Shown one piece after another: positions 6,835 to 59,507 of a stretch of DNA of 64,000 nt. Location of the stretch: contig OZ024742.1 in NCBI GenBank assembly GCA_964016885.1, positions 23,560,001 to 23,624,000 of the forward strand. The letters are read 5' to 3'. This DNA comes from Eledone cirrhosa. Taxonomy: Eukaryota. A program made the position numbers and the translations under genes. Numbering within the stretch: the stretch's first letter is position 1; each line of letters starts with the position of its first letter. The notes below the pieces were generated by a model that saw nothing but the letters and a program-made list of their open reading frames with translations, made no database searches and was not told the origin of the DNA.

Positions 6835-6876
<42 letters not shown>

Positions 6877-6880
<4 letters not shown>

Positions 6881-7082
6881 TGAAATAAACAACATAAGAT
6901 AATTATTTCATTCACCAGTGGTTTCTTGAAGACAGATGTTGTATCTGTCTTCAGTCGTCAGGATGGATAAAAAAGACATGGTGTTTTTATTAAATATGGA
7001 TTTGAAAATAAAATTCATGGAATATGAAAGTGAGGCTGAAAAAACAGGCGAAAAGGAAATAGGTGAAAAAAATAATAAAAAA
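6877..7082 (-). mobile_element. Family D left arm (inverted copy of 8695-8912) with degraded hammerhead
   Basis: Reverse complement of 8695-8912; the hammerhead at ~6907-6966 has GUG at the cleavage triplet and stem I mismatches. Confidence 0.75.
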
Positions 7083-7089
7083 TATATAT

Positions 7090-8673
7090 ATATGAAGACA
7101 AACATAGAATATTCGAAAATATTCTGTATGTTTATAATAAACATTTTGAAGACCTAATCGCTATAGAATAGAATACGTCACGTATTACAATTTGAGATTC
7201 TCGATAAAAGCAAGGGAAGTAACCTACGCGTTTCATTCTTATTAGAAATCATCAGGATTACATATCCAATGCTTTTATCGAGAATCTCAAATTGTAATAC
7301 GTGACGTATTCTATTCTATAGCGATTAGGTCTTCAAAATGTTTATTATAAACATAGAAGAATATTTTCGAATATTCTATGTTTGTCTTCACATATATATC
7401 GCTATTTCAGAGCATTAAATCCAAATTATAATTTCTGCCGGACCGGCTACCGCTCTTTCAAACCAGTTCCTGTACACAGCTAAGTATTCTATAAGTCTCT
7501 AGCTGTGTCGTTCTCGATAAAAGCATTGGATATGTAATCCTGATGATTTCTAATAAGAATGAAACGCGTAGGTTACTTCCCTTGCTTTTATCGAGAATCT
7601 CAAATTGTAATACGTGACGTATTCTATTCTATAGCGATTAGGTCTTCAAAATGTTTATTATAAACATACAGAATATTTTCGAATATTCTATGTTTGTCTT
7701 CACATATATATCGCTATTTCAGAGCATTAAATCCAAATTCTAATTTCTGCCGGACCGGCTACCGCTCTTTCAAACCAGTTCCTGTACACAGCTAAGTATT
7801 CTATAAGTCTCTAGCTGTGTCGTTCTCGATAAAAGCATTGGATATGTAATCCTGATGATTTCTAATAAGAATGAAACGCGTAGGTTACTTCCCTTGCTTT
7901 TATCGAGAATCTCAAATTGTAATACGTGACGTATTCTATTCTATAGCGATTAGGTCTTCAAAATGTTTATTATAAACATACAGAATATTTTCGAATATTC
8001 TATGTTTGTCTTCACATATATATCGCTATTTCAGAGCATTAAATCCAAATTCTAATTTCTGCCGGACCGGCTACCGCTCTTTCAAACCAGTTCCTGTACA
8101 CAGCTAAGTATTCTATAAGTCTCTAGCTGTGTCGTTCTCGATAAAAGCATTGGATATGTAATCCTGATGATTTCTAATAAGAATGAAACGCGTAGGTTAC
8201 TTCCCTTGCTTTTATCGAGAATCTCAAATTGTAATACGTGACGTATTCTATTCTATAGCGATTAGGTCTTCAAAATGTTTATTATAAACATACAGAATAT
8301 TTTCGAATATTCTATGTTTGTCTTCACATATATATCGCTATTTCAGAGCGTTAAATCCAAATTCTAATTTCTGCCGGACCGGCTACCGCTCTTTCAAACC
8401 AGTTCCTGTACACAGCTAAGTATTCTATAAGTCTCTAGCTGTGTCGTTCTCGATAAAAGCATTGGATATGTAATCCTGATGATTTCTAATAAGAATGAAA
8501 CGCGTAGGTTACTTCCCTTGCTTTTATCGAGAATCTCAAATTGTAATACGTGACGTATTCTATTCTATAGCGATTAGGTCTTCAAAATGTTTATTATAAA
8601 CATACAGAATATTTTCGAATATTCTATGTTTGTCTTCACATATATATCGCTATTTCAGAGCATTAAATCCAAA
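7090..8673 (+). repeat. Retrozyme-like tandem array 1 (family E): 312-bp monomer, ~4.5 sense copies plus inverted 5' piece
   Basis: Hammerheads start at 7534, 7846, 8158 and 8470 (period 312); 7090-7270 is an inverted partial copy with a minus-strand hammerhead at 7219-7261; TA flanks. Confidence 0.92.
7534..7576 (+). ncRNA. Minimal type I hammerhead ribozyme, family E (also 7846-7888, 8158-8200, 8470-8512 on +; 7219-7261 on -)
   Basis: GUAAUC-CUGAUGA-U UUCU aaua AGAA U-GAA-ACGCGU-A-GGUUAC; predicted cut after GUA at 7570; stem I is extended by the outer 15-bp pair UUCUCGAUAAAAGCA/UGCUUUUAUCGAGAA. Confidence 0.88.
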
Positions 8674-8823
8674 TATATATATATATATATATAAATATTT
8701 TTTATTATTTTTTTATTATTTTTTTCCCCTATTTCCTTTTCGCCGGTTTTTTTTCAGCCTCACTTTCATATTTCCAAAATTTTATTTTCAAATCCATAAT
8801 TAATAAAAACACCATGATTTTTA

Positions 8824-8881
8824 TTCATTCTGACGACTGAAGACAGATACATCTGTCTTCAAGAAACCACTGGTAAATGAA
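8824..8881 (+). ncRNA. Type I hammerhead ribozyme, family D
   Basis: UUCAUU-CUGACGA-C UGAAGACAGAU ac AUCUGUCUUCA A-GAA-ACC acu GGU-A-AAUGAA; predicted cut after 8875; inside the right arm 8695-8912. Confidence 0.85.
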
Positions 8882-8975
8882 ATAATTATCTTATGTTGTT
8901 TATTACATAACTAATAAGCTCTGTAGCCTACATAGAGCATTCTTTTTTCCTGTACCTTTCCGACGGAAGTTCTTC

Positions 8976-9033
<58 letters not shown>

Positions 9034-9035
<2 letters not shown>

Positions 9036-9949
9036 TAGCGGTGGTACCCGGCGTTGCACGGGATAATGTATTTTGCAACGCGAGCCGTCAACAGACCTAA
9101 TCGTAGAAAAAATGCATGCATGGACAATATGTAAAGAAAATAAACCGAATACTCTGATGGCTGCATAATCTTTAAGATTTTCCTCGATGAGGCAGGAAAA
9201 AATGCTGATTTTCACCTAATGCCCTAGGGGATAAAAAAAATGAATTTTTTTATATACATAATATGCCTTGAAATTTCGGGAAAATCGGCGAGATGTAACG
9301 CTCCCATAAATCCCTAAAAAGCTGAAAAAATGAAGTTTTTCACCTAATACGGGCCCTAGACCATAACAAGTTGGATTTTCTTTGCTCACTGTATGAAGAA
9401 CAGACTGACTAATACACAGTTACAATTTCAAGGAAATCGGTCTGACTTAACGCCTAAAAAAACACCTAAAAAGCTTTAAAAGCGCAGTTTTTCACCTAAT
9501 GAGGGCCCTAGGAGATCAAAAAGTCGACATTTTTTATGTGCATAAAACTCCGTCAATCATAAGTAATAACATGTAAAGTTTGAAAAACATCGGTTGGGTA
9601 CTTCTCGAGTTTTAGGGATTCAAACTCACAGACACACACACAGACAGACATCCTCATGGACGTGGCGTAATGCAGACAGCCAGACATAAAGACAGATATT
9701 ATAAGGGCGCGACGTTATATGTATGTATCTATCTAAAAATAGAAAGACTAAGAATGATAGAGAGAGCTCACTAAATCGCCTAATGCGGTCCCTAGGTGAT
9801 TGAAAATTTGAAATTGTTTTTGCTCAGAACATTCCCTGAAACATAAGTATTACATGTGTAATGTTTGAAAACAGTCGGTTGGGTGGATCTCGAGTTTTAA
9901 GGATTGAAACTCACACACGCACAGACATCCTCAGTTTTATATATATAGA
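9034..9949 (+). mobile_element. Non-autonomous Helitron/Helentron-like element
   Basis: Starts TACTAG..ACCCGGCGTTGCACGGG (subterminal hairpin), has internal repeats, and ends cagacagaca...ttttatatatatagac; this layout is recalled from HINE-like elements. Confidence 0.55.
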
Positions 9950-10480
9950 CTAGCAGAAAACCATCCGGTGGGCGGTTTTCTGCTAGCAGATCTAGTGTAT
10001 ATACTGATACTGTTGAGATTTGGATGAGATATTGAACAAATCAAACGTATTAATCAAATCCCGCAGCTCCAGACTGATATTATGGAACTGCGCAATCTGA
10101 TTAATAAATTACCTCATCAGCAGCAACCTTCTTCAAATGGTCCTTATTATCAGCAGCAACAACCACAAGTTCAATGGCGACCTTCTTCAAACCACAAATT
10201 CAATGGCAACCTTCTTCAAATGGTCCTTGGCATGGTGTCAGGTCAGAACCGCCTTGAACTAGTTACTTCTGGCTCGTGCAAGGTGTCTCTATAGCAACCA
10301 GCGATTCCCTGGGCCTCAGTGACCAAGGCCAGTGGAGAGGGGAAGGTAATGTTTCTATAGCGACAGTGTTTCTCTTAGTAGTACCAAAGTGGAGAAAGGA
10401 AGGGGAAGGTAATATTTCTGTAGCACCTACATTTGAGTTTTAGGGACGGACAGACAGACAAACAGAGAAATGCCCATATA
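9949..10480 (+). mobile_element. Second Helentron-like non-autonomous element; similar start at 34175
   Basis: Begins with the hairpin CTAGCAGAAAACC...GGTTTTCTGCTAG and ends gacggacagacagacaaacagagaaat; the same start hairpin occurs at 34175-34217. Confidence 0.45.
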
Positions 10481-10484
10481 TTTC

Positions 10485-10530
<46 letters not shown>

Positions 10531-10535
<5 letters not shown>

Positions 10536-13500
10536 ATAAATGCTCTGAAATAGCGATATATATGTGAATATAGACATAGAATATTCGAAAATATTCTGTA
10601 TGTTTATAATAAACATTTTGAAGACCTAATCGCTATAGAATAGAATACGTCACGTATTACAATTAGATTCTCGATAAAAGCAAGGGAAGTAATCTACGCG
10701 TTTCATTCTTGTTAGAAATCATCAGGACTACATATCCAGTGCTTTTATCGAGAATGACACAGCTAGAGACTTATAGAATACTTAGCTGTGTACAGGAACT
10801 GGTTTGAAAGAGCGGTTGCCGGTCCGGCAGAAATTAGAAATTGGAATAAATGCTCTGAAATAGCGATATATATGTGAATATAGACATAGAATATTCGAAA
10901 ATATTCTGTATGTTTATAATAAACATTTTGAAGACCTAATCGCTATAGAATAGAATACGTCACGTATTACAATTAGATTCTCGATAAAAGCAAGGGAAGT
11001 AATCTACGCGTTTCATTCTTGTTAGAAATCATCAGGACTACATATCCAGTGCTTTTATCGAGAATGACACAGCTAGAGACTTATAGAATACTTAGCTGTG
11101 TACAGGAACTGGTTTGAAAGAGCGGTTGCCGGTCCGGCAGAAATTAGAAATTGGAACAAATGCTCTGAAATAGCGATATATATGTGAATATAGACATAGA
11201 ATATTCGAAAATATTCTGTATGTTTATAATAAACATTTTGAAGACCTAATCGCTATAGAATAGAATACGTCACGTATTACAATTAGATTCTCGATAAAAG
11301 CAAGGGAAGTAATCTACGCGTTTCATTCTTGTTAGAAATCATCAGGACTACATATCCAGTGCTTTTATCGAGAATGACACAGCTAGAGACTTATAGAATA
11401 CTTAGCTGTGTACAGGAACTGGTTTGAAAGAGCGGTTGCCGGTCCGGCAGAAATTAGAAATTGGAATAAATGCTCTGAAATAGCGATATATATGTGAATA
11501 TAGACATAGAATATTCGAAAATATTCTGTATGTTTATAATAAACATTTTGAAGACCTAATCGCTATAGAATAGAATACGTCACGTATTACAATTAGATTC
11601 TCGATAAAAGCAAGGGAAGTAATCTACGCGTTTCATTCTTGTTAGAAATCATCAGGACTACATATCCAGTGCTTTTATCGAGAATGACACAGCTAGAGAC
11701 TTATAGAATACTTAGCTGTGTACAGGAACTGGTTTGAAAGAGCGGTTGCCGGTCCGGCAGAAATTAGAAATTGGAATAAATGCTCTGAAATAGCGATATA
11801 TATGTGAATATAGACATAGAATATTCGAAAATATTCTGTATGTTTATAATAAACATTTTGAAGACCTAATCGCTATAGAATAGAATACGTCACGTATTAC
11901 AATTAGATTCTCGATAAAAGCAAGGGAAGTAATCTACGCGTTTCATTCTTGTTAGAAATCATCAGGACTACATATCCAGTGCTTTTATCGAGAATGACAC
12001 AGCTAGAGACTTATAGAATACTTAGCTGTGTACAGGAACTGGTTTGAAAGAGCGGTTGCCGGTCCGGCAGAAATTAGAAATTGGAATAAATGCTCTGAAA
12101 TAGCGATATATATGTGAATATAGACATAGAATATTCGAAAATATTCTGTATGTTTATAATAAACATTTTGAAGACCTAATCGCTATAGAATAGAATACGT
12201 CACGTATTACAATTAGATTCTCGATAAAAGCAAGGGAAGTAATCTACGCGTTTCATTCTTGTTAGAAATCATCAGGACTACATATCCAGTGCTTTTATCG
12301 AGAATGACACAGCTAGAGACTAATAGAATACTTAGCTGTGTACAGGAACTGGTTTGAAAGAGCGGTTGCCGGTCCGGCTGAAATTAGAAATTGGAATAAA
12401 TGCTCTGAAATAGCGATATATATGTGAATATAGACATAGAATATTCGAAAATATTCTGTATGTTTATAATAAACATTTTGAAGACCTAATCGCTATAGAA
12501 TAGAATACGTCACGTATTACAATTAGATTCTCGATAAAAGCAAGGGAAGTAATCTACGCGTTTCATTCTTGTTAGAAATCATCAGGACTACATATCCAGT
12601 GCTTTTATCGAGAATGACACAGCTAGAGACTTATAGAATACTTAGCTGTGTACAGGAACTGGTTTGAAAGAGCGGTTGCCGGTCCGGCAGAAATTAGAAA
12701 TTGGAATAAATGCTCTGAAATAGCGATATATATGTGAATATAGACATAGAATATTCGAAAATATTCTGTATGTTTATAATAAACATTTTGAAGACCTAAT
12801 CGCTATAGAATAGAATACGTCACGTATTACAATTAGATTCTCGATAAAAGCAAGGGAAGTAATCTACGCGTTTCATTCTTGTTAGAAATCATCAGGACTA
12901 CATATCCAGTGCTTTTATCGAGAATGACACAGCTAGAGACTTATAGAATACTTAGCTGTGTACAGGAACTGGTTTGAAAGAGCGGTTGCCGGTCCGGCAG
13001 AAATTAGAAATTGGAATAAATGCTCTGAAATAGCGATATATATGTGAATATAGACATAGAATATTCGAAAATATTCTGTATGTTTATAATAAACATTTTG
13101 AAGACCTAATCGCTATAGAATAGAATACGTCACGTATTACAATTAGATTCTCGATAAAAGCAAGGGAAGTAATCTACGCGTTTCATTCTTGTTAGAAATC
13201 ATCAGGACTACATATCCAGTGCTTTTATCGAGAATGACACAGCTAGAGACTTATAGAATACTTAGCTGTGTACAGGAACTGGTTTGAAAGAGCGGTTGCC
13301 GGTCCGGCAGAAATTAGAAATTGGAATAAATGCTCTGAAATAGCGATATATATGTGAATATAGACATAGAATATTCGAAAATATTCTGTATGTTTATAAT
13401 AAACATTTTGAAGACCTAATCGCTATAGAATAGAATACGTCACGTATTACAATTAGATTCTCGATAAGAGCAAGGGAAGTAATCTACGCGTTTCATTCTT

Positions 13501-14479
13501 GTTAGAAATCATCAGGACTACATATCCAGTGCTTTTATCGAGAATGACACAGCTAGAGACTTATAGAATACTTAGCTGTGTACAGGAACTGGTTTGAAAG
13601 AGCGGTTGCCGGTCCGGCAGAAATTAGAAATTGGAATAAATGCTCTGAAATAGCGATATATATGTGAATATAGACATAGAATATTCGAAAATATTCTGTA
13701 TGTTTATAATAAACATTTTGAAGACCTAATCGCTATAGAATAGAATACGTCACGTATTACAATTAGATTCTCGATAAAAGCAAGGGAAGTAATCTACGCG
13801 TTTCATTCAAAATGTTTATTATAAACATACAGAATATTTTCGAATATTCTATGTCTATATTCACATATATATCGCTATTTCAGAGCATTTATTCCAATTT
13901 CTAATTTCTGCCGGACCGGCAACCGCTCTTTCAAACCAGTTCCTGTACACAGCTAAGTATTCTATAAGTCTCTAGCTGTGTCATTCTCGATAAAAGCACT
14001 GGATATGTAGTCCTGATGATTTCTAACAAGAATGAAACGCGTAGATTACTTCCCTTGCTTTTATCGAGAATCTAATTGTAATACGTGACGTATTCTATTC
14101 TATAGCGATTAGGTCTTCAAAATGTTTATTATAAACATACAGAATATTTTCGAATATTCTATGTCTATATTCACATATATATCGCTATTTCAGAGCATTT
14201 ATTCCAATTTCTAATTTCTGCCGGACCGGCAACCGCTCTTTCAAACCAGTTCCTGTACACAGCTAAGTATTCTATAAGTCTCTAGCTGTGTCATTCTCGA
14301 TAAAAGCACTGGATATGTAGTCCTGATGATTTCTAACAAGAATGAAACGCGTAGATTACTTCCCTTGCTTTTATCGAGAATCTAATTGTAATACGTGACG
14401 TATTCTATTCTATAGCGATTAGGTCTTCAAAATGTTTATTATAAACATACAGAATATTTTCGAATATTCTATGTCTATA

Positions 14480-14483
<4 letters not shown>
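10531..14483 (-). repeat. Retrozyme-like tandem array 2 (family E variant): 310-bp monomer, ~10.6 copies on minus plus ~2.2 inverted copies
   Basis: Units start at 10531, 10841 ... 13631 (period 310); orientation flips at ~13808; only about four substitutions seen among the units (11157, 12322, 12379, 13469). Confidence 0.95.
10689..10731 (-). ncRNA. Minimal type I hammerhead, family E variant (10 minus copies every 310 bp to 13479-13521; plus copies 14007-14049 and 14317-14359)
   Basis: GUAGUC-CUGAUGA-U UUCU aaca AGAA U-GAA-ACGCGU-A-GAUUAC. Confidence 0.88.
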
Positions 14484-20286: not shown

Positions 20287-20696
20287 GATATTAAATAACT
20301 GGAAACTATATTTATAAAACCATATTTATTCTATTATATATATTTCAATGGTACCAAACCTTTGGTACGCTTTCATCAGTTAAAATACGAAGTGTGTTTT
20401 ATAAATGTTGACATAACCAAGGAAAATACCTTACCAGTTCAAGTTTTCCCTGGTATGGTATTTTCCTTGGTAATGTAAAAATTTATAAAACACACTTCGT
20501 ATTTTATCTGAAGAAAGCGTACCAAAATTTTGGTACCCTTGAAATATATATAATAGAATAAATATGGTTTTATAAATATAGTTTCCAATTATTTAATATC
20601 ATTGAATATTAAACTCCAGAAATGCTGTTGAGTCGTCAGAATCAGTTATAAACATTTATATTTGTTGAATTACCAACAAATTGAATATTCCTTCTG

Positions 20697-24007: not shown

Positions 24008-27000
24008 CTACAGCCGCATGACCAGAGTAAGCCTACTCACACGGGCCATTCTCACCACATTCACCCACCTTTCAGCAAATGTACTGTGAGGGGGGGGGGC
24101 AACACTTCTCTCTCCACCCTCACCTTCCTTTCCAAGTGAAACTTGAAAAAGTTGATGAGGGATTGGCCGAAGAGAAAAGTGTTTATCTTCAGTCCTTTCA
24201 ACCTCGTTCACCATACAACTTCTTTCGCTACTCCCACCAGACGTGGAAAATTGCCTGCCCTTCCTGGCCAAAAGAAGATGGTGGGTCGATCTTCACTATG
24301 GACTCGGCCGATAGCCGGATCCGTTCTACACGCGACAACAGCTGTTCAACATAACTCCACAAGTCAGTAATGCACGGACACTGGACGAGTGCGTGCAGAA
24401 AGGTTTCGTCGCTCTGCGCGCATCTCGGGCAGGTCCGTCTGACAGTACTTCCGTGCCTGTAGAGTTTATCTCTAACTGGCAGTGCCGGTAGCACTACCAA
24501 GCGAGGGATTTGGGGAAATTATCCATCGTCCCCGGCTCGAAAGTCCTCCGGAACAGACTGGTTAGTTCGACTCCCAGAGCCTCTCCGAGTGCGTTGTCGC
24601 ACCTTCCCACCACTAATCATCTATAGAACTCGAGAGTGGAAGTTCCACTGACCGCATTGCCCGACTGGTAGAGTGCAGTGAGTGCCTGGCAACATTCCAG
24701 ATGCCAGTCACCCAGTCTCGGTCTCTTCTTGACCCAGGACTGCAGCTCAGTCAAAGAAACGAGCTGCGGAAAGGCCCGTCTGACAAACGGCGACCACACC
24801 TGTTCACCGTTTAGGCAGAATATCTGGAGATGCCGCAGCCTCAGCTCGTGTCTGCGCATCATTAACCACGGCATGCCCAGCCCCCCACGTAGAGGGTGCT
24901 GACAGCAGATGGACCGCCTCACCAGCAGAACCTGACCCCTCCACAAGAATTTGAAGAGGAGCCGCTCCAAGATGGCGAGGCGCGAACGGGGGCAAGAGAC
25001 GACGGTTAGACGGTAGTAGATGACGGACGTGATGTACGCTTTCGCCACCTCCGCCCGACCTTTCAGTGATAGCTTCCTCCCAGCCCATTTCTGGGTGAGA
25101 CTGGCTAGCCTGCCCGTCACCTCGTCCCAATTCTTATCCACCTGGAGGTCTGGCCCTGACTAAACCCCGAGCAACTTTACCGGTCCGTCCGTCCAGCGCC
25201 TAACGTCGCTGTTGGACCTCATGGACTTGCCTCTCCAGGTGCCGACTTGCAAGCCCACCGACCTTTCCGGGTTAAGTTTTGCTCCCGTCAATCTTTCATA
25301 TTCCTCCAATAAGTTTCCGACCACCTCGATTTCTGAGGTGTCCGACACCATCACGGTGATGTCGTCCGCATATGCCGACATGGCCTTTCCGGGTCCCGGT
25401 TCGAGCGGGATGCCCTGCAACAGCTCCAGCTTCCGCAGTAAAGGCTCGAGAGTCAATATGTACAGAAGGGAGGAGAGAGGGCACCCTTGACGGACCGATC
25501 GGGAGACCTGAAACGGTTCCCAGAGGTGGCCATTAATTTTGACCACCGCGCAGGTGCCGCTGTGCATTGCAGCGATCCAGCTTCTGAAGACGGGGCCGAA
25601 GCCAGCCGCCTTGAGGACAGCCTCTAGGTACCGATGGTCGACCCTATTGAATGCTTTCGATTGATCTAAATTGATCAGTTCCCCACCGAAGCCAGGTTTA
25701 CACACTACCCTCTCTATGATGTATCGCATTAGGTGGAGGTTGTCGTGTATGGACCTGTTTGGGATTGCGCAAATTTGCGCCTCCCCAACCAAATCACCGA
25801 CGACAAGCGCCAACCTCTTCGGTAACACCCTGGCCAAAATCTTAAACTCTGTGTTGAGCAGAATTATGGTTCTGAAATTGTCTAATGTGTCCCTCTTGTT
25901 CTCGTCTTTCCTTATCAGCGTCACTACGCCCCGGCTCACAGAACTGGGAATTCTCCCGTTTTGCTGCCAGTTGCAGTAGAGGGCTTCGAGGAGATTGGAG
26001 AACAAGTCTGGCATATTTACGTAAATTTCGTAGAGAAGACCATCAAAACCGGGTGACTTGCGCCTCATGCAGCCGACAAGGGCATCCTGAATCTCGGCTG
26101 AAGTAATTGGCCTTTCGCAGCGCCCACGTCAGCCGTCGAATGTTGCGGCAAGCCATCGAGGTAGGGACTGAATTTCGCCACTGTCTCTGACCCGCCACTC
26201 TCCCCGAACAACCGAGCAAAGTGCTGGCGAAAGGCCTCATACATCCGCTTGGAATCGCTTATCTCGTGTCCGTCTCGGTCCGCCAAAGACCGAATTGTGG
26301 TTTTATTACCACGCTGCGCCTCTGCGACACGGTCCCATCGAACAGCTTTGGCTCCCTCGTTATTCAGCGCACGCACCTTAGCTCTGACAATGCAAACTTC
26401 GTGTTTCGCATTGAAGAAATGGTCTAATCTCATTCTCGCCGCTAGCACGTCAGTTGCAATGCCACTACCAATAGCCTCGTCTAACTTATGTACCAACTCC
26501 CCCTCCTTTCTATTTTTCTCTAACGCTACATCTTCGACATTACTCTAATCTCTCTTTTGAGAGCCCCCCACCATCTATTGTTGACGACTCCCCCTGTCAA
26601 CTTTTGTTAACTAAATTGTTGACCTGGCCCCGGTAAGCCTTACGTGCCGGAAATGACATGTTTAGCTTCCTGTAACCAGGTCCTAACCTACGCGTCTTAT
26701 CTAGGTCGACCATACAGATCACAAACTTGGGTTCTGAATAGGCGACCGTTTTAATACGTGGACAGCTTACACTATTTCTGTCAATTTCCTAATGAATAGC
26801 CTGTCTATATACGATCTAGATGACCCTATGCGGTTAGTCCAGGTCCACATTGGCGTATTAGGGAAATCTAGTCGGTACCTGTCAGACAGTTGGAACTGAC
26901 TGATCAGGTTTTTGAGGCTTTTGCACCCCCGCTCATAGCGGATACTCCCACACAGTCACAGCGTGCGTCTAAGATGCCGTTCCAGTCCACCTCTAACAGT

Positions 27001-30827: not shown

Positions 30828-31437
30828 AATATGAAAAAATGATTAAATAATCACCTGTTCAGATGCTGTTACCGACGGTTTCATCATTCCGAAAGATTGG
30901 AAATCCAACGAATTTCCAATTTAATCATTTTTTAATTTATTTAGAAAATTGTTTAATAACCGTTTGTTTCGCTACTTTTATATTGTTCTGATATCTCGAA
31001 TTAGTGCCATTGAACCACATGTATTATAAACAACTTGAATATTTCTACAAGTACATTGTACCTGTTGAAGTATCCATCCACTTCTATAATTTATTCTCCT
31101 TATGTAGAGAACAAAACGTTGAATAATGCTGCTAATTTTAGTAGCAATTCGACATGTTTATAATATCCAGCTTTTATCAGCGACCTGATTTGCGTGTGTG
31201 TCACTTTAACGGCTTGACCGCATGCGTTGGGCAGGGAGCATAATATTTACTTGCTATACCTTATAGCGTGGAAATAGGGCTGTCTGAAGATACATTTCTT
31301 TCCATTGGAAATTCGTTGGATTTCCAATCTTTCGGAATGATGAAACCGTCGGTAACAGCATCTGAACAGGTGATTATTTAATCATTTTTTAATTCATTTA
31401 GAAAATTGTTTAATAACCGTTTGTTTCGCTACTTTTA
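30828..31437 (+). mobile_element. Family H pLTR/retrozyme-like insertion: inverted piece plus monomer plus partial repeat
   Basis: ~30837-30920 is the reverse complement of ~31304-31388; 30921-30981 repeats at 31378-31437; TA on the right. Confidence 0.75.
31279..31359 (+). ncRNA. Type I hammerhead, family H
   Basis: GCUGU-CUGAAGA-UA CAUUUC..AUUGGAAAU../..AUUUCCAAU..GGAAUG AU-GAA-ACC guc GGU-A-ACAGC; predicted cut after 31354. Confidence 0.75.
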
Positions 31438-46535: not shown

Positions 46536-47705
46536 TATATACATAAAAATGATATACATTAAATTAAAGCTTAATACATAAAAACTCCTTAACCATACCT
46601 TTGGGTTTTATCGTGACGATGGTCTAATACTTTCCCATACCACTATAGGCCATAACTTAGATAGATTCAGGAAAGACTTAATAAAAACCTTCGCTAGTTT
46701 TAATCTTGAAATTACTATTGACACTAACCTTTCTAATGTTAATTTTCTAGATATAAACCTAGATCTGCCTACTGCTTCTTATAAATCGTACCATAAACCT
46801 AATGAACATTTAAAATATATAAATAAAGGCTCTTGCCATCCTCCTACAGTTTTTAAAAATCTTATCCGTAATATTAGCCGTAGGATCTCCACCCTCTCTT
46901 CCTCAGAAGCTATTTTCAATAAGGCATCCCCCTACTATAATAAAGCCCTTCAAAATAGCGGATATAGCGAACCGATTAAGTACATACCCAACAATACTAA
47001 CTCCTTTAAACATAATAATAGGAATAGAAAAATAATCTGGTTCACATCCCCCTACTCTCTAGCAGTTAAAACTAATGTAAGCAAAAAATTCCTAGAGCTC
47101 TTAGATAAACATTTCCCTAGAACACATAGATACTGTAAAACCTTCAATAGAAACTGTGTCAAAATCAGCTACTCCAGCTACCCCTATTAAATCTTATATC
47201 CTCAATAAGAAAATACCCAGAGAACATCAAAATTGCTCCTGTAGAGTCAAAAGTGAATGCCCATTACAAGGTAAATGCAACACCAACGCCATTGTATATG
47301 CGGCTAAAGTGACAACCACCAACAACAACCTACCAGCCACCAGCGAACGATATGTGGGTACAAGACTAATTCAAAACGCGTTATTACTCACATGTCACAT
47401 CTTTCCGACATCCTGAAAAAAGATTTACAACAGCTCTGGCTAGAAGAATATGGGATTTGAAAGACCAAGGTATACCATATAAATTAGATTGGTCAATTTT
47501 GAACCAATCTAAAGAATATGCAAGAGGAACAAGTAGATGCGCTCTCTGCATAAGTGAAAAATATTGTATTTTACAGAACATTAAATCACCAAAAACCTGC
47601 CTAAATGCAAAAACAAAAAATTTCACCAGTTGCCCACACATGAAATCACACTTGCTTTCCAGCTCATATAAACTTAAATCACTTTCAGATACTTATCCTC
47701 CATAA
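46536..47705 (+). pseudogene. Penelope-like element ORF, 5'-truncated: RT C-terminal half plus GIY-YIG endonuclease
   Basis: FYRDDGL, VNFLDI, SCHPP, RKIIWFTSPYS, HFP, FNRNCVKISYS; CSCRVKSECPLQGKC..IVYAAKV..YVG; CALCISEKYCIL..LNAK..SCPH; at least two frameshifts. Confidence 0.92.
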
Positions 47706-48491
47706 ACTCTTGTTCTTCACTTTCCTTAACTTACCTTCGTTACAGACTTCTCTTTCTGATTTACTTTTATTTTTATTTTTAACTTTATTTTTACTTCATA
47801 TCTACTAGTGACCCCCCCCCCCCTGCTTTTTGATTCACTTACCTTATATCTTCACAATTTTACATATTTTACTTCCCCCATTTCTTTCACTACCTAATAT
47901 CGCTTGTCACTTGTGTTTTCAACTGCAGATATATTATGTTGTCCCTCAGCCGCTTTATGTATGTTTACTTGCATATAATTTGTACTCATTTATTCATACG
48001 GCTGGTTTTTATATTGTATGTATGCTTGTAAGTGTGCATATGTGTGTATACGTGTTTGTATATGTATACGAATGCACTCGTATGTGCGCGTGTATGTGAT
48101 GTGTATATGTGTGTGTGTATGTGTGTTTTTATATCTATGTTTTTTACATACTTATATATATCTGTGTATATATATATATATGTGTATATACGGAAAAAAT
48201 GAAACGAAATTTCATTTCCCACTCTTAGTACGGCTGTTACTTAAATATAAGTATGTATATGTACATACATATATGTATACAGACGTACAGTAGTATGTAT
48301 ATATACATACATGCACACATATATATATATGTACGTATGGATTCACTAAACATTTATTATAATGCTCGGTGTGTTTGTAAACAAACATCCCGTATTAAGC
48401 CGTAGTGTCTAGCAACCACCGTTGCTCGTTTGTTCAACACTGACAAAGGAACGCTGTACTAGTTTCAACGTTGTTAGCTATGTATGTATGT

Positions 48492-48545
<54 letters not shown>

Positions 48546-48665
48546 TCGCGTGCATGCATGTGATTATATGTACATGTATGTATATATATGTGCTTCGTGT
48601 GTATGTATGCGCGCTTTTGTATGTATGTACGCATGTATGTGCTTTTGTCTGTACGTATATATATA

Positions 48666-48723
<58 letters not shown>

Positions 48724-49360
48724 CGTACGAAATTCTGTATGTTTCTACTTTTCATTTATTTTTTCTAGTGTTACCTTATAATTGATAACCCCTCCCTCAC
48801 ACTTTCTCTTGGATTTAATTTTTTTATTCTTATACATTTTTTCATTTTCATATTTTATATTTTTATATCTGTATCGACACTGCTTTATCTGTCTCCTGCC
48901 AATATCGACACTGCTTTGACTGATACACTCCCTTCCCTGTATATATCACATACATGTATGTGGTTGTGCGTGTGTGTGTGTGTGTTTAGACGCGTGCTTT
49001 CATACTTGTATGTGTATATATTTCAATCTTTAGTCCCTGAGTCTGTATGTACGCTAAAACTATTATCTTACAATTTCTTTTTTCAACATATATTATATAC
49101 GTATTTGTGGTCACACATACACTGATATGCTTGCCCTCATGTATGTACTTAGGCACACATTTTTTCACTATACTCATACATTTGTACATACACACATATG
49201 TACATTTGTAGGTGCATATACACACATTTATTCACATACACTTACTATTTTTCCTTATGTTATTTTATATATCTCTTGCAATACTTCTTTTTATATATTT
49301 ATTTTCCGTTAAACTTTTGCCTTTCTTGAGGAGATGTTTCAAATATTTCACTATGTTTTA

Positions 49361-49427
49361 AATTGCCTTGTCTGACGAACGAATGAGGACGTTTCTTATT
49401 CGGGAAACCTCTGGCAATGAGGTAATT
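49361..49427 (+). ncRNA. Type I hammerhead, family I; probable pLTR ribozyme of the upstream Penelope; one core substitution
   Basis: AAUUGCCUUGU-CUGACGA-A CGAAUGAGGA cgu UUCUUAUUCG G-GAA-ACC ucu GGC-A-AUGAGGUAAUU; U16.1 is replaced by C. Confidence 0.75.
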
Positions 49428-49454
49428 ATATTGTATTGTTTATTATAAATATAT

Positions 49455-49953: not shown

Positions 49954-50159
49954 AAAGTGAGGTTTTTTTACAAAATGAAAAGTAACCGAGGTGTCCTACA
50001 CGAGTGAAAGTATAAAGAAAAAAAGATGAAATCGAAAATGCAACTGGAGTCTAATTTTTTTTAAATTATATATATTTATTTGGTTCCTTTACCAGCTTCG
50101 CAGTTCTTCTGCTTTTCAAAGGTAGAGTTGACATGGAGGTCTGTAGTTTTTCTCACATT

Positions 50160-50520
50160 TTTTCCGTTTAATGTTTTCGGTGCGCCCGGCCGATTAACTC
50201 ACTCGACATGCAAATTGGGCTGCTCAGCCTTTAATATGCATAAGGAAAATATATACTTTCAGACGTTCAATCATCGGGCAGGAAGGTATGCGGTGCTGAC
50301 GATAGCTAATAAGCTCGAAATTAGTACATCGTTCCCTTGTCAGTGTTGAACAAAAAGTGCAACGATGCTTGCTAAACACTGTACGGCTTAATTCGGGATG
50401 TTTGTTTACAAACATACCGAGCATTATAATAAATGTTCGATGAATACATGCGTACATATATATATGTGTGCATGTATGTATATATATACATACTACTGTA
50501 CGTTTGTATACATATATACT
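50160..50520 (+). mobile_element. Diverged family K monomer with hammerhead at 50290-50332; an inverted partial copy lies at ~48195-48480
   Basis: GCGGUG-CUGACGA-U AGCU aaua AGCU C-GAA-AU ua GU-A-CAUCGU; the body aligns by eye to 58060-58480. Confidence 0.75.
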
Positions 50521-51616
<1,096 letters not shown>

Positions 51617-56987: not shown

Positions 56988-57420
56988 TATATATATATAT
57001 ATAAAGATGTGAGAAAAACCACAGACCATCTATCTCAACTATACTTTTGAAAAGCAGAAGAACTGCGAAGCTGGTAAAGGAACCAAATAAATATATATAT
57101 TTTTTTTAAAATAACACTCCAGTTGGATTTTCGATTTCATCTTTTTTTCTTTATATTTTCACTCGTGTAGGACACCTGGGTTATTTTTCATTTTGTAAAA
57201 AAAACCTCACTTTCTAATATATATATATATATATATAAATATATTGTTGACAAACAAACGAACAAAGCTGCGTTATAATAAACGTCGGCTAAACTGATGC
57301 GTGCATATATGTATGTGTACCTGTGTGCATATATGTATATATATGTGTATATATATATATATGTATATATATATATGCATGCTACTGTACGTCTGTATAC
57401 ATATATGTATGTACGTATAC

Positions 57421-57975: not shown

Positions 57976-58181
57976 ATGTACGTATACATACATACTTACA
58001 TTTAAGTAAGTGCCATACTAAGAGTGAGAAATGAAATTTCGTTTTCATTTTTTTTCAACTTATCGTTTTCGGTATGCCTGACCGATTTAACTCACTCAAT
58101 ATGCAAATTAGGCTGCTCAGCCGTTAATTTTCATAAGGAAAGTATATACTTTCGAACGTTCAACTATCTGGCAGATGGGTA

Positions 58182-58226
58182 AACGGTGCTGATGATAGCT
58201 AACAAGCTTGAAACTAGTACATCGTT
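58182..58226 (+). ncRNA. Minimal type I hammerhead, family K (second copy 58676-58720)
   Basis: AACGGUG-CUGAUGA-U AGCU aaca AGCU U-GAA-ACUAGU-A-CAUCGUU; predicted cut after 58219. Confidence 0.88.
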
Positions 58227-58403
58227 CCTGTGTCAGTGTTGAACAAAAAGGTGACGTGGTTGCCTTAACACCGTATGGCATAAATTCAGGCTGTTCTGTT
58301 TGTTGACAAACAAACGAACAAAGCTGCGTTATAATAAACGTCGGCTAAACTGATGCGTGCATATATGTATGTGTACCTGTGTGCATATATGTATATATAT
58401 GTG

Positions 58404-58438
<35 letters not shown>

Positions 58439-59507
58439 GCATGCTACTGTACGTCTGTATACATATATATATGTACGTATACATACATACTTACATTTAA
58501 GTAAGTGCCAAACTAAGAGTGAGAAATGAAATTTCGTTTTCATTTTTTTCAACTTATCGTTTTCGGTATGCCTGACCGATTTAACTCACTCAATATGCAA
58601 ATTAGGCTGGTCAGCCGTTAATTTTCATAAGGAAAGTATATACTTTCGAACGTTCAACTATCTGGCAGATGGGTAAACGGTGCTGATGATAGCTAACAAG
58701 CTTGAAACTAGTACATCGTTCCTGTGTCAGTGTTGAACAAAAAGGTGACGTGGTTGCCTTAACACCGTATGGCATAAATTCAGGCTGTTCTGTTTGTTGA
58801 CAAACAAACGAACAAAGCTGCGTTATAATAAACGTCGTCTAAACTGATGCGTGCATATATGTATGTGCACCTGTGTGCATATATGTATATATATGTGTAT
58901 ATATTTATATATGTATATATATATGCATGCTACTGTACGTCTGTATACATATATGTATGTACGTATACATACATACTTACATTTAAGTAAGTGCCATACT
59001 AAGAGTGAGAAATGAAATTTCGTTTTCATTTTTTTTCAACTTATATAAATATATATATATATATTATATATATAAATATATATACAAATGCAGATTGAGA
59101 TGAAATCATGTGTTGAAACAGATATTATTATATGTGGGGAGGATCATGTCCTATTATTGTCAAAAATAATAATTGTTTCTACTTTTTGGCACAAGGCCAG
59201 CAATTATCCCAGTGTATTACTGGTACTTTCTTTTATCGACCCCCGTTAAGATGAAAGGCAAAGGTAACCTCAGCGGGATTTTGAACGCAGACCATAAAGG
59301 GCCGTAACTCTTTGCTGCAAAGCATGGCGTCAGACCCTCTACCGATACTACCAATCCACAGCCCTGTCAAAAATAATAATAAAACACACTTATTGTTTGC
59401 TTTGGCTTTCGCTTCAGTTGAGTATAGCTTTATACTTTGTTTGATATCCATAATAGATGTTTTATTTACCGGCGTATTATACATTAGCTGCGTGTATATG
59501 TAAACAT

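Follow-up and report, generated by a model that had tools for sequence, protein, structure and literature searches.

Two insertions of a hammerhead-bearing tandem repeat in Eledone cirrhosa: a very probable non-LTR retrozyme with end structures of the Penelope type

We analysed a 64,000-nt stretch of the Eledone cirrhosa genome (contig OZ024742.1; the window) and found that its two arrays of a non-coding repeat are two separate insertions in which a long arm is joined to an inverted short arm, rather than plain arrays. The repeat unit (312 bp in insertion 1, 310 bp in insertion 2) carries one type I hammerhead, and 17 complete hammerheads are present across both insertions (5 in array 1 and 12 in array 2), with complete hammerheads in consecutive units in runs of 4, 10 and 2. 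Very probably the unit, of approximately 311 bp, belongs to the animal non-LTR retrozymes, is parasitic on a Penelope-like element (PLE) and has templates that are under selection. The insertions are built as follows.

7093 to 7284, minus strand: short inverted arm of insertion 1, 5'-truncated, with one complete hammerhead (core start 7255)
7270 to 8674, plus strand: long arm of insertion 1, 4.5 units of 312 bp, with complete hammerhead cores at 7540, 7852, 8164 and 8476
8639 to 8674, plus strand: tail of insertion 1, 36 nt, on the long arm only
10530 to 13808, minus strand: long arm of insertion 2, 10.6 units of 310 bp, with ten complete hammerheads and an eleventh that the inversion junction (13795) interrupts
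10530 to 10564, minus strand: tail of insertion 2, 35 nt, on the long arm only, followed by (TA)n at 10495-10531
13806 to 14483, plus strand: short inverted arm of insertion 2, 2.2 units, with two complete hammerheads (cores at 14013 and 14323)

All four insertion ends adjoin (TA)n directly. In insertion 1 the 3' end of the short arm meets (TA)n at unit position 132 after the cut site. In insertion 2 the short arm reaches it at the identical unit position, and the two long arms extend 36 and 35 nt beyond this point. The inversion junction of insertion 1 lies inside the palindromic outer helix (7270-7284) and that of insertion 2 shows 3 nt of microhomology (13806-13808). There is precedent for such ends in the endonuclease-bearing PLEs of the Hydra and Neptune clades, which target (TA)n, leave an inverted 5'-truncated copy and carry a tail of 30-40 bp on one end, and which also include partial tandems and hammerheads in their repeats (10.1101/2021.04.23.441226). 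Both insertions (2/2) bear these marks, and the shared end points, the inverted arm and the 35-36-nt tail in (TA)n constitute structural evidence for PLE-type integration. What sets our element apart from these PLEs is a unit without a reading frame, repeated up to 10.6 times as whole units rather than as partial tandems, and a canonical short-helix-II ribozyme. Retrozymes can have target duplications of more than 4 bp, and at both insertions the (TA)n targets would hide any such duplication. Several other hammerhead families lie within the window, and insertion 1 is flanked by the arms of an older, different hammerhead-bearing element:

6875 to 7082, minus strand: left arm of the older element, core start 6961, with G as the cut-site base and an imperfect stem I
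8709 to 8978, plus strand: right arm of the older element, sharing 91% identity with the left one, carrying a type I hammerhead of the long-stem-II kind at 8824-8881 and continuing for about 65 additional bases up to (TA)n

The window also contains a PLE of the kind proposed as a helper, which we regard as a candidate for that role:

46582 to 47705, plus strand: broken PLE in three frames, with a reverse transcriptase end bearing YRDD, a CxCx5C linker and an endonuclease-like end

Its linker appears to be of the Hydra type, the clade being assigned from the description of the motif only. The linker was reached and is carried by 13 of the 46 homologues of this fragment, and Pfam names neither the fragment nor 9 of these 46. 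No reading frame for a reverse transcriptase with a GIY-YIG endonuclease was found in or beside the arrays, and the arrays have no coding capacity: the interval 7093-14483 lacks any stop-to-stop frame of 150 codons.

Given that the insertion marks are those of PLEs, the units could instead be repeated pseudo-LTR pieces, copied from the transcript of an autonomous PLE ending in unit sequence, and not an independent retrozyme. Xenopus retrozymes are homologous to pseudo-LTRs (10.64898/2026.07.22.740005), and approximately one third of the reads of X23 (raw DNA reads of another sample, from a reduced-representation library; 8564 reads used) run out of the unit into other sequence, at 7742 and 7912. 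These complementary loose ends may, however, be library chimeras; three short motifs taken from them are absent from the window. Also against this explanation, 10.6 identical head-to-tail units stand without coding sequence, the PLE fragment of the window shares no sequence with the unit, and the ribozyme's helix II is short, the canonical form of retrozymes, unlike the long helix II that PMC4209133 describes for PLE ends. We consider this explanation highly improbable and return to a retrozyme in its own right, for which the following features of the ribozyme are relevant:

7534 to 7576, plus strand: hammerhead, array 1 form, with a stem I of 6 bp, core CUGAUGA, U.U followed by a 4-bp stem II, loop AAUA, and GAAA; stem III is the palindromic ACGCGU and the predicted cut follows A7570
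14007 to 14049, plus strand: hammerhead, array 2 form, with stem I GUAGUC/GAUUAC and loop II AACA, the majority form in reads
7510 to 7598, plus strand: ribozyme domain, with a 3-bp helix below stem I and a 16-bp outer helix (7510-7525 with 7583-7598) made of 15 invariant pairs and one changing closing pair

The motif combines the canonical core (CUGANGA, GAAA and UH) with a helix I of 6 bp, a helix II of 4 bp and a helix III of 1-2 bp with a palindromic loop, and PMC4209133 describes the same short-helix architecture with a palindromic stem III for canonical animal hammerheads acting as dimers. In both arrays, and also in a second hammerhead family of the window, U.U takes the place of the conserved G10.1-C11.1 pair; 5% of reads have A-U there. 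Two of these features are described in axolotl retrozymes (PMC7229834): U.U at the base of helix II in HHR_Amex2, a mismatch described in an axolotl ribozyme that is active, and a helix III of one pair with a palindromic tetraloop in HHR_Amex1. Rfam Hammerhead_HH9 (RF02275, clan CL00010) aligns over its whole model in core, type I topology, lengths of stems I and II and loop positions, at scores of 20.6 and 19.2 bits that are far below the gathering score of 52. Unlike HH9, which is a single conserved copy, the unit hammerhead is tandem and mobile, its stem III is reduced to a palindrome and U.U stands at the base of stem II. At gathering scores Rfam gave no match anywhere in the window, and microRNA and snoRNA matches at E-value level were rejected as chance hairpins.

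The predicted fold of the unit goes beyond chance, with none of 100 dinucleotide shuffles folding as well for either unit (z of -5.1 and -4.2). The monomer is predicted to be 56-60% paired, the opposite strand folds as strongly, and the double-hammerhead fold lies 4-6 kcal/mol above the predicted minimum.

Animal non-LTR retrozymes, as PMC7229834 and 10.64898/2026.07.22.740005 present them, are likewise head-to-tail, non-coding units of 150-450 bp with low G+C and one type I hammerhead each, and they also share a self-paired monomer, within-family variants and PLEs in the genome. Sizes given in the former are 350-390 bp for coral and mussel and 330/350 bp for axolotl. The Eledone unit falls within the size range, is tandem and non-coding, has a G+C below 50% (approximately 0.30-0.35 in the bins containing the arrays), has no LTRs and shares its genome with a PLE. 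The likeness drawn here is one of architecture; the sequence is expected to be lineage-specific. Inverted arms, fixed end points and a 35-36-nt tail joined to (TA)n are found here and are not described for known retrozymes in the available text of these sources.

A preliminary description of the arrays had read the differences between them as pair-preserving and hence as a sign of selection on the RNA fold. The substitutions themselves are real: stem I is GUAAUC/GGUUAC in 5/5 complete ribozymes of array 1 and GUAGUC/GAUUAC in 12/12 of array 2 (A7537 against G14010, G7572 against A14045), loop II changes from AAUA to AACA (T7554 against C14027) and the pair closing the outer helix from G-U to A-U (G7510 against A13983). 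Core and outer helix are also invariant but for one unit, as had been described, although the place is 13468 and not 13469:

13468, minus strand: U to C in a single unit, which breaks one A-U pair of the outer helix

What had been listed was a selection from the 12 substitutions and one 2-bp indel that separate the units. Absent from it were a fifth difference inside the ribozyme domain (T7526/C, in an internal loop) and two differences outside the ribozyme that break predicted pairs. The domain is no more conserved than the remainder of the unit (5/89 against 7/223 places changed; Fisher P = 0.33). The two stem I changes affect two different pairs, one side each, and all three 'pair-preserving' changes are single-sided A/G changes opposite U, with none compensatory; wobble-only changes between two sequences are not covariation. 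Private changes in complete array 2 units break predicted pairs in 2/4 cases, as expected after insertion. Invariance within an array arises because each is one recent insertion from one template, and as each array is one near-clonal insertion, n = 2.

Under a strand-symmetric neutral model of the between-array changes, the core stays untouched with P = 0.62, all pairs of the ribozyme-domain helices stay unbroken with P = 0.15-0.16, and the two outcomes coincide with P = 0.09-0.10. Given three helix changes, P = 0.03 that all keep pairing; given two, the closing pair having been defined after the fact, P = 0.09. A first null model (P = 0.002 given three helix changes, 0.044 unconditional) was dropped for this polarity-free one because taking array 1 as ancestor makes G.U to A-U changes look rare. 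As evidence for selection on the fold the window is weak; the changes are too few to serve as proof, and it is variants in the wider family that point that way. A comparison of two arrays that is not significant (P about 0.1), and a ribozyme domain as variable as the remainder of the unit, would also suit satellite drift on a once-active repeat, that is, a relic ribozyme with DNA-level array growth, homogenisation and neutral differences. Local growth by unequal crossover is moreover the favoured model for array length in 10.64898/2026.07.22.740005, and may have occurred here.

The variants in X23, which represent a few lineages and are unphased, were counted from 22 rows at 21 places; nine rows were excluded, eight for clipping and thin coverage (7735, 7737, 7738, 7740, 7743, 7744, 7911 and 7916) and one as seen in contigs only (7982). 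We found that: (i) none of the 12 conserved core bases has a variant that reaches 2%; (ii) the free core position 7 varies in 618/2067 reads (30%); (iii) all seven helix substitutions in the ribozyme domain (7/7) keep pairing and are A/G opposite U, with no U/C opposite A despite 20 A and 20 U sites (two-sided P = 0.016 for the strand asymmetry) and (iv) the joint lack of core changes and broken pairs has P = 0.011-0.013 under neutrality. Restricted to the 10 places that are new relative to the window, the last value is 0.14, or 0.025 given four helix changes. No two-sided (compensatory) change was found within the family, and in 170/2538 reads the 3' strand of stem I contains one inserted base. 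Several array 1 alleles are rare (4-5% of reads), so the differences cannot all be marks of replicating subfamilies, and the subfamilies seem to number more than two. The family is widely tandem, because approximately 3065 reads link unit end to unit start; unit-length circular contigs are present and are equally well explained by tandem DNA. Sample X1, which may underlie the window assembly, was used as a second look only, and its summed depth of 120,000-740,000 is no copy number. Samples X4 and X5, under other species labels, carry the unit at low depth (1 and 5 contigs), as a relative or as carry-over. Fifteen more runs, with shares of 0.21-0.36, played no part in the analysis. No RNA data set was listed as containing the unit, an outcome that bears in neither direction on its expression.

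The strand asymmetry is not expected from a process acting on DNA, and a core that varies at its free position only, together with two insertions that share end points, tails and inverted arms, likewise speaks against drift, which we regard as very unlikely. The asymmetry may also have another source. Biased change on the RNA, rather than selection, may have produced the A/G changes opposite U: the A-U to G.U changes would be footprints of A-to-I editing, or of another strand-biased change, fixed by reverse transcription. All helix variants fit this, and pairing-preserving C-to-U changes opposite G are absent at 2%; two further A/G changes opposite U occur in another hairpin (7982 in one contig, and 8008). 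A-to-I editing favours adenosines with a 5' U, and 3/4 such helix adenosines vary, but the neighbour bias is not significant (P = 0.10). Editing is further described, in one abstract, as biased against a 5' G, and site 7884 has one. Editing leaves unexplained the untouched core, the varying position 7, a U.U to A-U variant at 7859 and covariation across families. It has been put forward as one possible cause of retrozyme RNA heterogeneity (PMC7229834), and our literature search brought up no study of retrozyme editing among the 20 of 36 matches listed. We judge editing in place of selection to be unlikely, and favor selection on templates.

Covariation across families comes from the second hammerhead family of the window, which aligns gap-free with the unit hammerhead. 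In this alignment (5 distinct rows from 2 families) 8/16 pairs change on both sides, 96% of cells pair as against 38-49% in slid controls, and the stem III palindrome is maintained by two-sided change; judged from the aligned sequences, this is true covariation. A covariance model built from both families retrieved 21 full or near-full copies, all training rows or identical to them, and one junction-cut copy, with nothing new. That the subfamilies passed through a structured RNA rather than drifting as a plain satellite, as the preliminary description held for two of them, is probably right. It does not follow from the evidence listed there; the support comes from the family-wide variants, the cross-family covariation and the insertion ends, all beyond the data then considered. 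A degenerate core pattern found no match in the viral or metagenome contigs searched, so that nothing in those collections points to a viroid-like or viral source. A literature search for retrozymes or hammerheads with octopus or cephalopod found no such family described, a listing in supplements being possible.

A plausible cycle would begin with transcription of a tandem locus on the ribozyme strand. Neighbouring hammerheads, whose motif is present in consecutive units, would pair their palindromic ACGCGU stems III into double hammerheads and cut after the A7570-equivalent sites to release monomers of 310-312 nt. Counting against this step, cleavage in vitro was seen for only 1/9 of the retrozyme dimers predicted in 10.64898/2026.07.22.740005. 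Stem I and the 16-bp outer helix would then close the monomer and bring its ends together, with ligation to circles as in other retrozymes. A PLE endonuclease and reverse transcriptase would presumably nick (TA)n, with priming close to the AU run (unit position 132-141); copying round a circle or along a multimer would yield many identical units, a shorter arm in inverted orientation and, on one end, a tail of 35-36 nt, the end structure seen twice here. The two arrays would represent two such events from two templates. Selection would act on the templates, such that only those keeping core and helices leave copies, and the inserted DNA would then drift.

A bolder version of this scheme, distinctly unlikely in our estimation, would have the helix variants as A-to-I marks on circular or multimeric RNA, copied back into the genome by a Hydra-clade PLE reverse transcriptase that primes at one fixed site on the circle. 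If true, this would be a direct instance of RNA editing that shapes how a mobile element with a ribozyme evolves, and the fixed ends would map how PLE enzymes prime on a retrozyme.

The element is ordinary for an animal genome rich in PLEs. The strand-specific A/G pattern makes selection on the helices and RNA editing of them testable against each other. The published link between retrozymes and PLEs rests on co-occurrence and on likeness to pseudo-LTRs (10.64898/2026.07.22.740005), and to this the structure of the insertions adds evidence that can be tested genome-wide.

The window is animal-like in sequence, with abundant (TA)n and a repeat landscape reminiscent of octopus; between 7093 and 14483 there are two insertions of one repeat, whose units of 312 bp (insertion 1, 7093-8674, array 1) and 310 bp (insertion 2, 10530-14483, array 2) are 95.5% identical. 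Both consist of one long arm and one shorter arm on the opposite strand, directed away from each other. A type I hammerhead motif is present in every complete unit (n=5 in insertion 1, n=12 in insertion 2) and in one copy cut by a junction. In both arrays a six-pair stem I is combined with a four-pair stem II that rests on a U.U. Stem III, ACGCGU, is palindromic; two stem III pairs are impossible within one molecule, while two copies would form a 6-bp duplex of -7.5 kcal/mol. According to PMC4209133, canonical animal hammerheads that occur in tandem repeats and cut as dimers have this layout. Rfam HH9 matched weakly (20.6 and 19.2 bits against a gathering score of 52), and a scan of the whole window gave no Rfam match at gathering score. 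We place this 311-bp family, as a new member, among the animal non-LTR retrozymes, non-coding tandem retroelements bearing hammerheads; a literature search limited to main articles found no description of a cephalopod retrozyme family of this kind.

The insertion ends recur. The short arms exit the unit beside an AU run, 132 nt (insertion 1) and 130 nt (insertion 2) past the cut site, which given the 2-bp indel is the same unit position; the long arms extend 36 and 35 nt further, and all four arm ends join (TA)n. The marks of endonuclease-bearing Penelope-like elements (PLEs) given in 10.1101/2021.04.23.441226 are a truncated copy in inverted orientation, a tail of 30-40 bp at one end and a (TA)n target, and both insertions resemble such elements in their inverted arm, 36/35-nt tail and (TA)n. 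That the units are copies of a PLE pseudo-LTR is distinctly unlikely. Plain satellite drift, with array length perhaps changed after insertion, fails to explain the recurring ends and is highly improbable. The inversion junction lies in the palindromic outer helix in insertion 1 and in a 3-nt microhomology in insertion 2. Insertion 1 is nested between the older, inverted arms of a different element that also bears hammerheads (arm-to-arm identity 91%). The spacer between the insertions (9035-9960) holds short diverged internal repeats (68-152 bp, 75-77% identical) among (TA)n tracts.

The preliminary description had read pair-preserving substitutions between the arrays as selection on the RNA fold. 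All the base changes that it listed are in the sequence; the change confined to a single unit also exists, but at 13468 rather than 13469, and it breaks a pair. A 2-bp indel and 12 substitutions separate the array units. The 89-nt ribozyme domain (hammerhead, 3-bp helix below stem I and 16-bp outer helix; 7510-7598 in array 1) has five of the substitutions and the remaining 223 nt have seven (P = 0.33), so that the domain is not more conserved than the rest. Three changes preserve pairing, each a one-sided A/G difference facing a constant U in a separate pair. In the rest of the unit two substitutions are disruptive: 8006 removes a pair from the array 1 fold, and 7760 one to which the array 2 fold assigns a probability of 0.84. 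Variation within arrays is small (five differences among 14 complete units, three more in the incomplete unit at the start of array 1). Because the units are near-identical and the inverted arms share their own array's alleles, each insertion derives from a single template, giving a sample of n=2. Each form of stem I has exactly one wobble pair, at adjacent positions (7537/7572 and 14010/14045); two lineages suffice to account for this, and it is possible that stem I stability is tuned.

Under a neutral model (12 substitutions placed randomly, strand-symmetric, 7/12 transitions) the probability was (i) 0.62 that the core is missed; (ii) 0.15-0.16 that no pair of the domain helices is broken; (iii) 0.09-0.10 for both; and (iv) 0.03 that pairing is kept in all, conditional on three helix hits, rising to 0.09 when the closing pair, which is helix only by virtue of its pairing, is left out. 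A first null model with array 1 as ancestor gave far smaller values and was set aside as biased. With n=2 and a joint neutral probability of 0.09-0.10, the array differences are suggestive at best of selection on the fold.

We also compared the unit at 7710-8021 with four public runs. X23, raw reduced-representation DNA reads from another sample (species label identical to that of the best-matching run) and not a fair sample of copies, yielded 8564 aligned reads, about 3065 of which run from the end of one unit into the start of the next. The analysis used 22 of the 31 variant rows listed, those with good coverage (21 places); they are unphased and represent few lineages. No variant reached 2% at the 12 conserved core bases; the free core position 7 (7856) varied (618/2067 reads), as did two places in loop II, and the U.U became A-U at 7859 in 5% of reads. 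All seven domain-helix variants (7822, 7831, 7832, 7848, 7849, 7884, 7902) are A/G opposite U and none U/C opposite A, despite 20 A and 20 U sites, an asymmetry (two-sided P = 0.016) that satellite drift also fails to explain. A-to-I editing of the repeat RNA predicts A/G opposite U exclusively, and its neighbour signal is weak (3/4, P = 0.10); it leaves the untouched core unexplained and is unlikely. For selection on the fold, the neutral probability of no core hit and no break among these variants was 0.011-0.013; restricted to the 10 places not seen in the window it was 0.14 (0.025 when conditioned on four helix hits). A one-base insertion within the stem I 3' strand (170/2538 reads) counts against a clean picture. 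The preliminary description was probably right in its conclusion, but its proof was insufficient.

The stem I alleles make up 80% and 79% of reads, and the array 1 pair recurs in contigs of X4 and X5 (low-depth samples under other species labels), so that neither stem I form is confined to the window. At such read shares, a form with only Watson-Crick pairs or with two wobbles could be no more than a small minority. Array 1 alleles at 7822, 7760, 8006 and 8008 occur in 4-5% of reads, and the variants at position 7, 7866 and 7867, with shares of 25-30%, point to a third lineage. Reads also exit the unit at 7742 (921) and 7912 (661) into sequence absent from the window; the consensus loose ends are complementary, by eye, over about 26 bases (agreement only 0.46-0.47), and reflect either a longer subfamily with a further long helix around the ribozyme module or library-joined fragments cut at AATT sites.

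Other elements in the window
50150-50596 (+), 57976-59044 (+), 48194-48493 (-) and 57244-57420: second retrozyme-like family, unit 494 bp
50596-51473: third hammerhead family, between (TA)n tracts, spacing 481 bp, inverted arm at left end
5421 (-), 20508 (+) and 23147 (+): hammerheads with palindromic stem III AUAUAUAU
24620-26544 (-): broken LINE-type reverse transcriptase (Pfam RVT_1, 89.6 bits), G+C-rich stretch
46582-47705 (+): broken PLE with a CxCx5C linker

True covariation was seen only across families. Hammerheads of the second family (50296, 58189, 58683, and a decayed piece at 48435-48493) align without gaps to the 311-bp family ribozyme and share its spacing, AAUA/AACA loop change and palindromic stem III; the base of stem II is U.U (or U.C), and the remainder of the unit is unrelated. 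Across five distinct rows from the two families, 8 of 16 pairs show a two-sided change and 96% of cells pair, compared with 38-49% in slid controls; the stem III palindrome persists through a two-sided change. This supports the predicted fold and dimer; its basis is two families, and it is silent on selection between the arrays. The third family has two hammerheads (50840, 51321), whose stem II region spans 52 nt and whose stem III is a 10-nt palindrome; a diverged relative lies at 31284. The AUAUAUAU hammerheads at 20508 and 23147 lie within inverted-arm insertions flanked by (TA)n.

The hammerhead motif, the tandem units with their inverted arms, the fixed ends, the tails and the family-level constraint are observed. 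By analogy with published retrozymes (PMC7229834), the 311-bp repeat would be transcribed, its RNA cut with the assistance of dimers and ligated to circles, and these copied by an enzyme of a PLE. Tertiary terms aside, the double-hammerhead fold lies 4-6 kcal/mol above the predicted minimum, and a recent test (10.64898/2026.07.22.740005) saw only one of nine predicted retrozymes cut; for these reasons we grade the predicted ribozyme activity as likely and no firmer.

The CxCx5C linker of the broken PLE, shown by 13 of its 46 homologues, is a trait given for the Hydra clade, every family of which inserts in (TA)n according to 10.1101/2021.04.23.441226. Its eukaryotic clusters in Atlas include none with an informative name. 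It has no sequence in common with the 311-bp unit and therefore indicates what type of helper is present without identifying the one used. Within 46582-49445 (+) it is followed by a long T-rich sequence and, at 49373, by a decayed hammerhead related to those flanking insertion 1 (8830, 6961); this may be the 3' end of the PLE. If so, the flanks of insertion 1 would be pieces of that PLE's pseudo-LTR.
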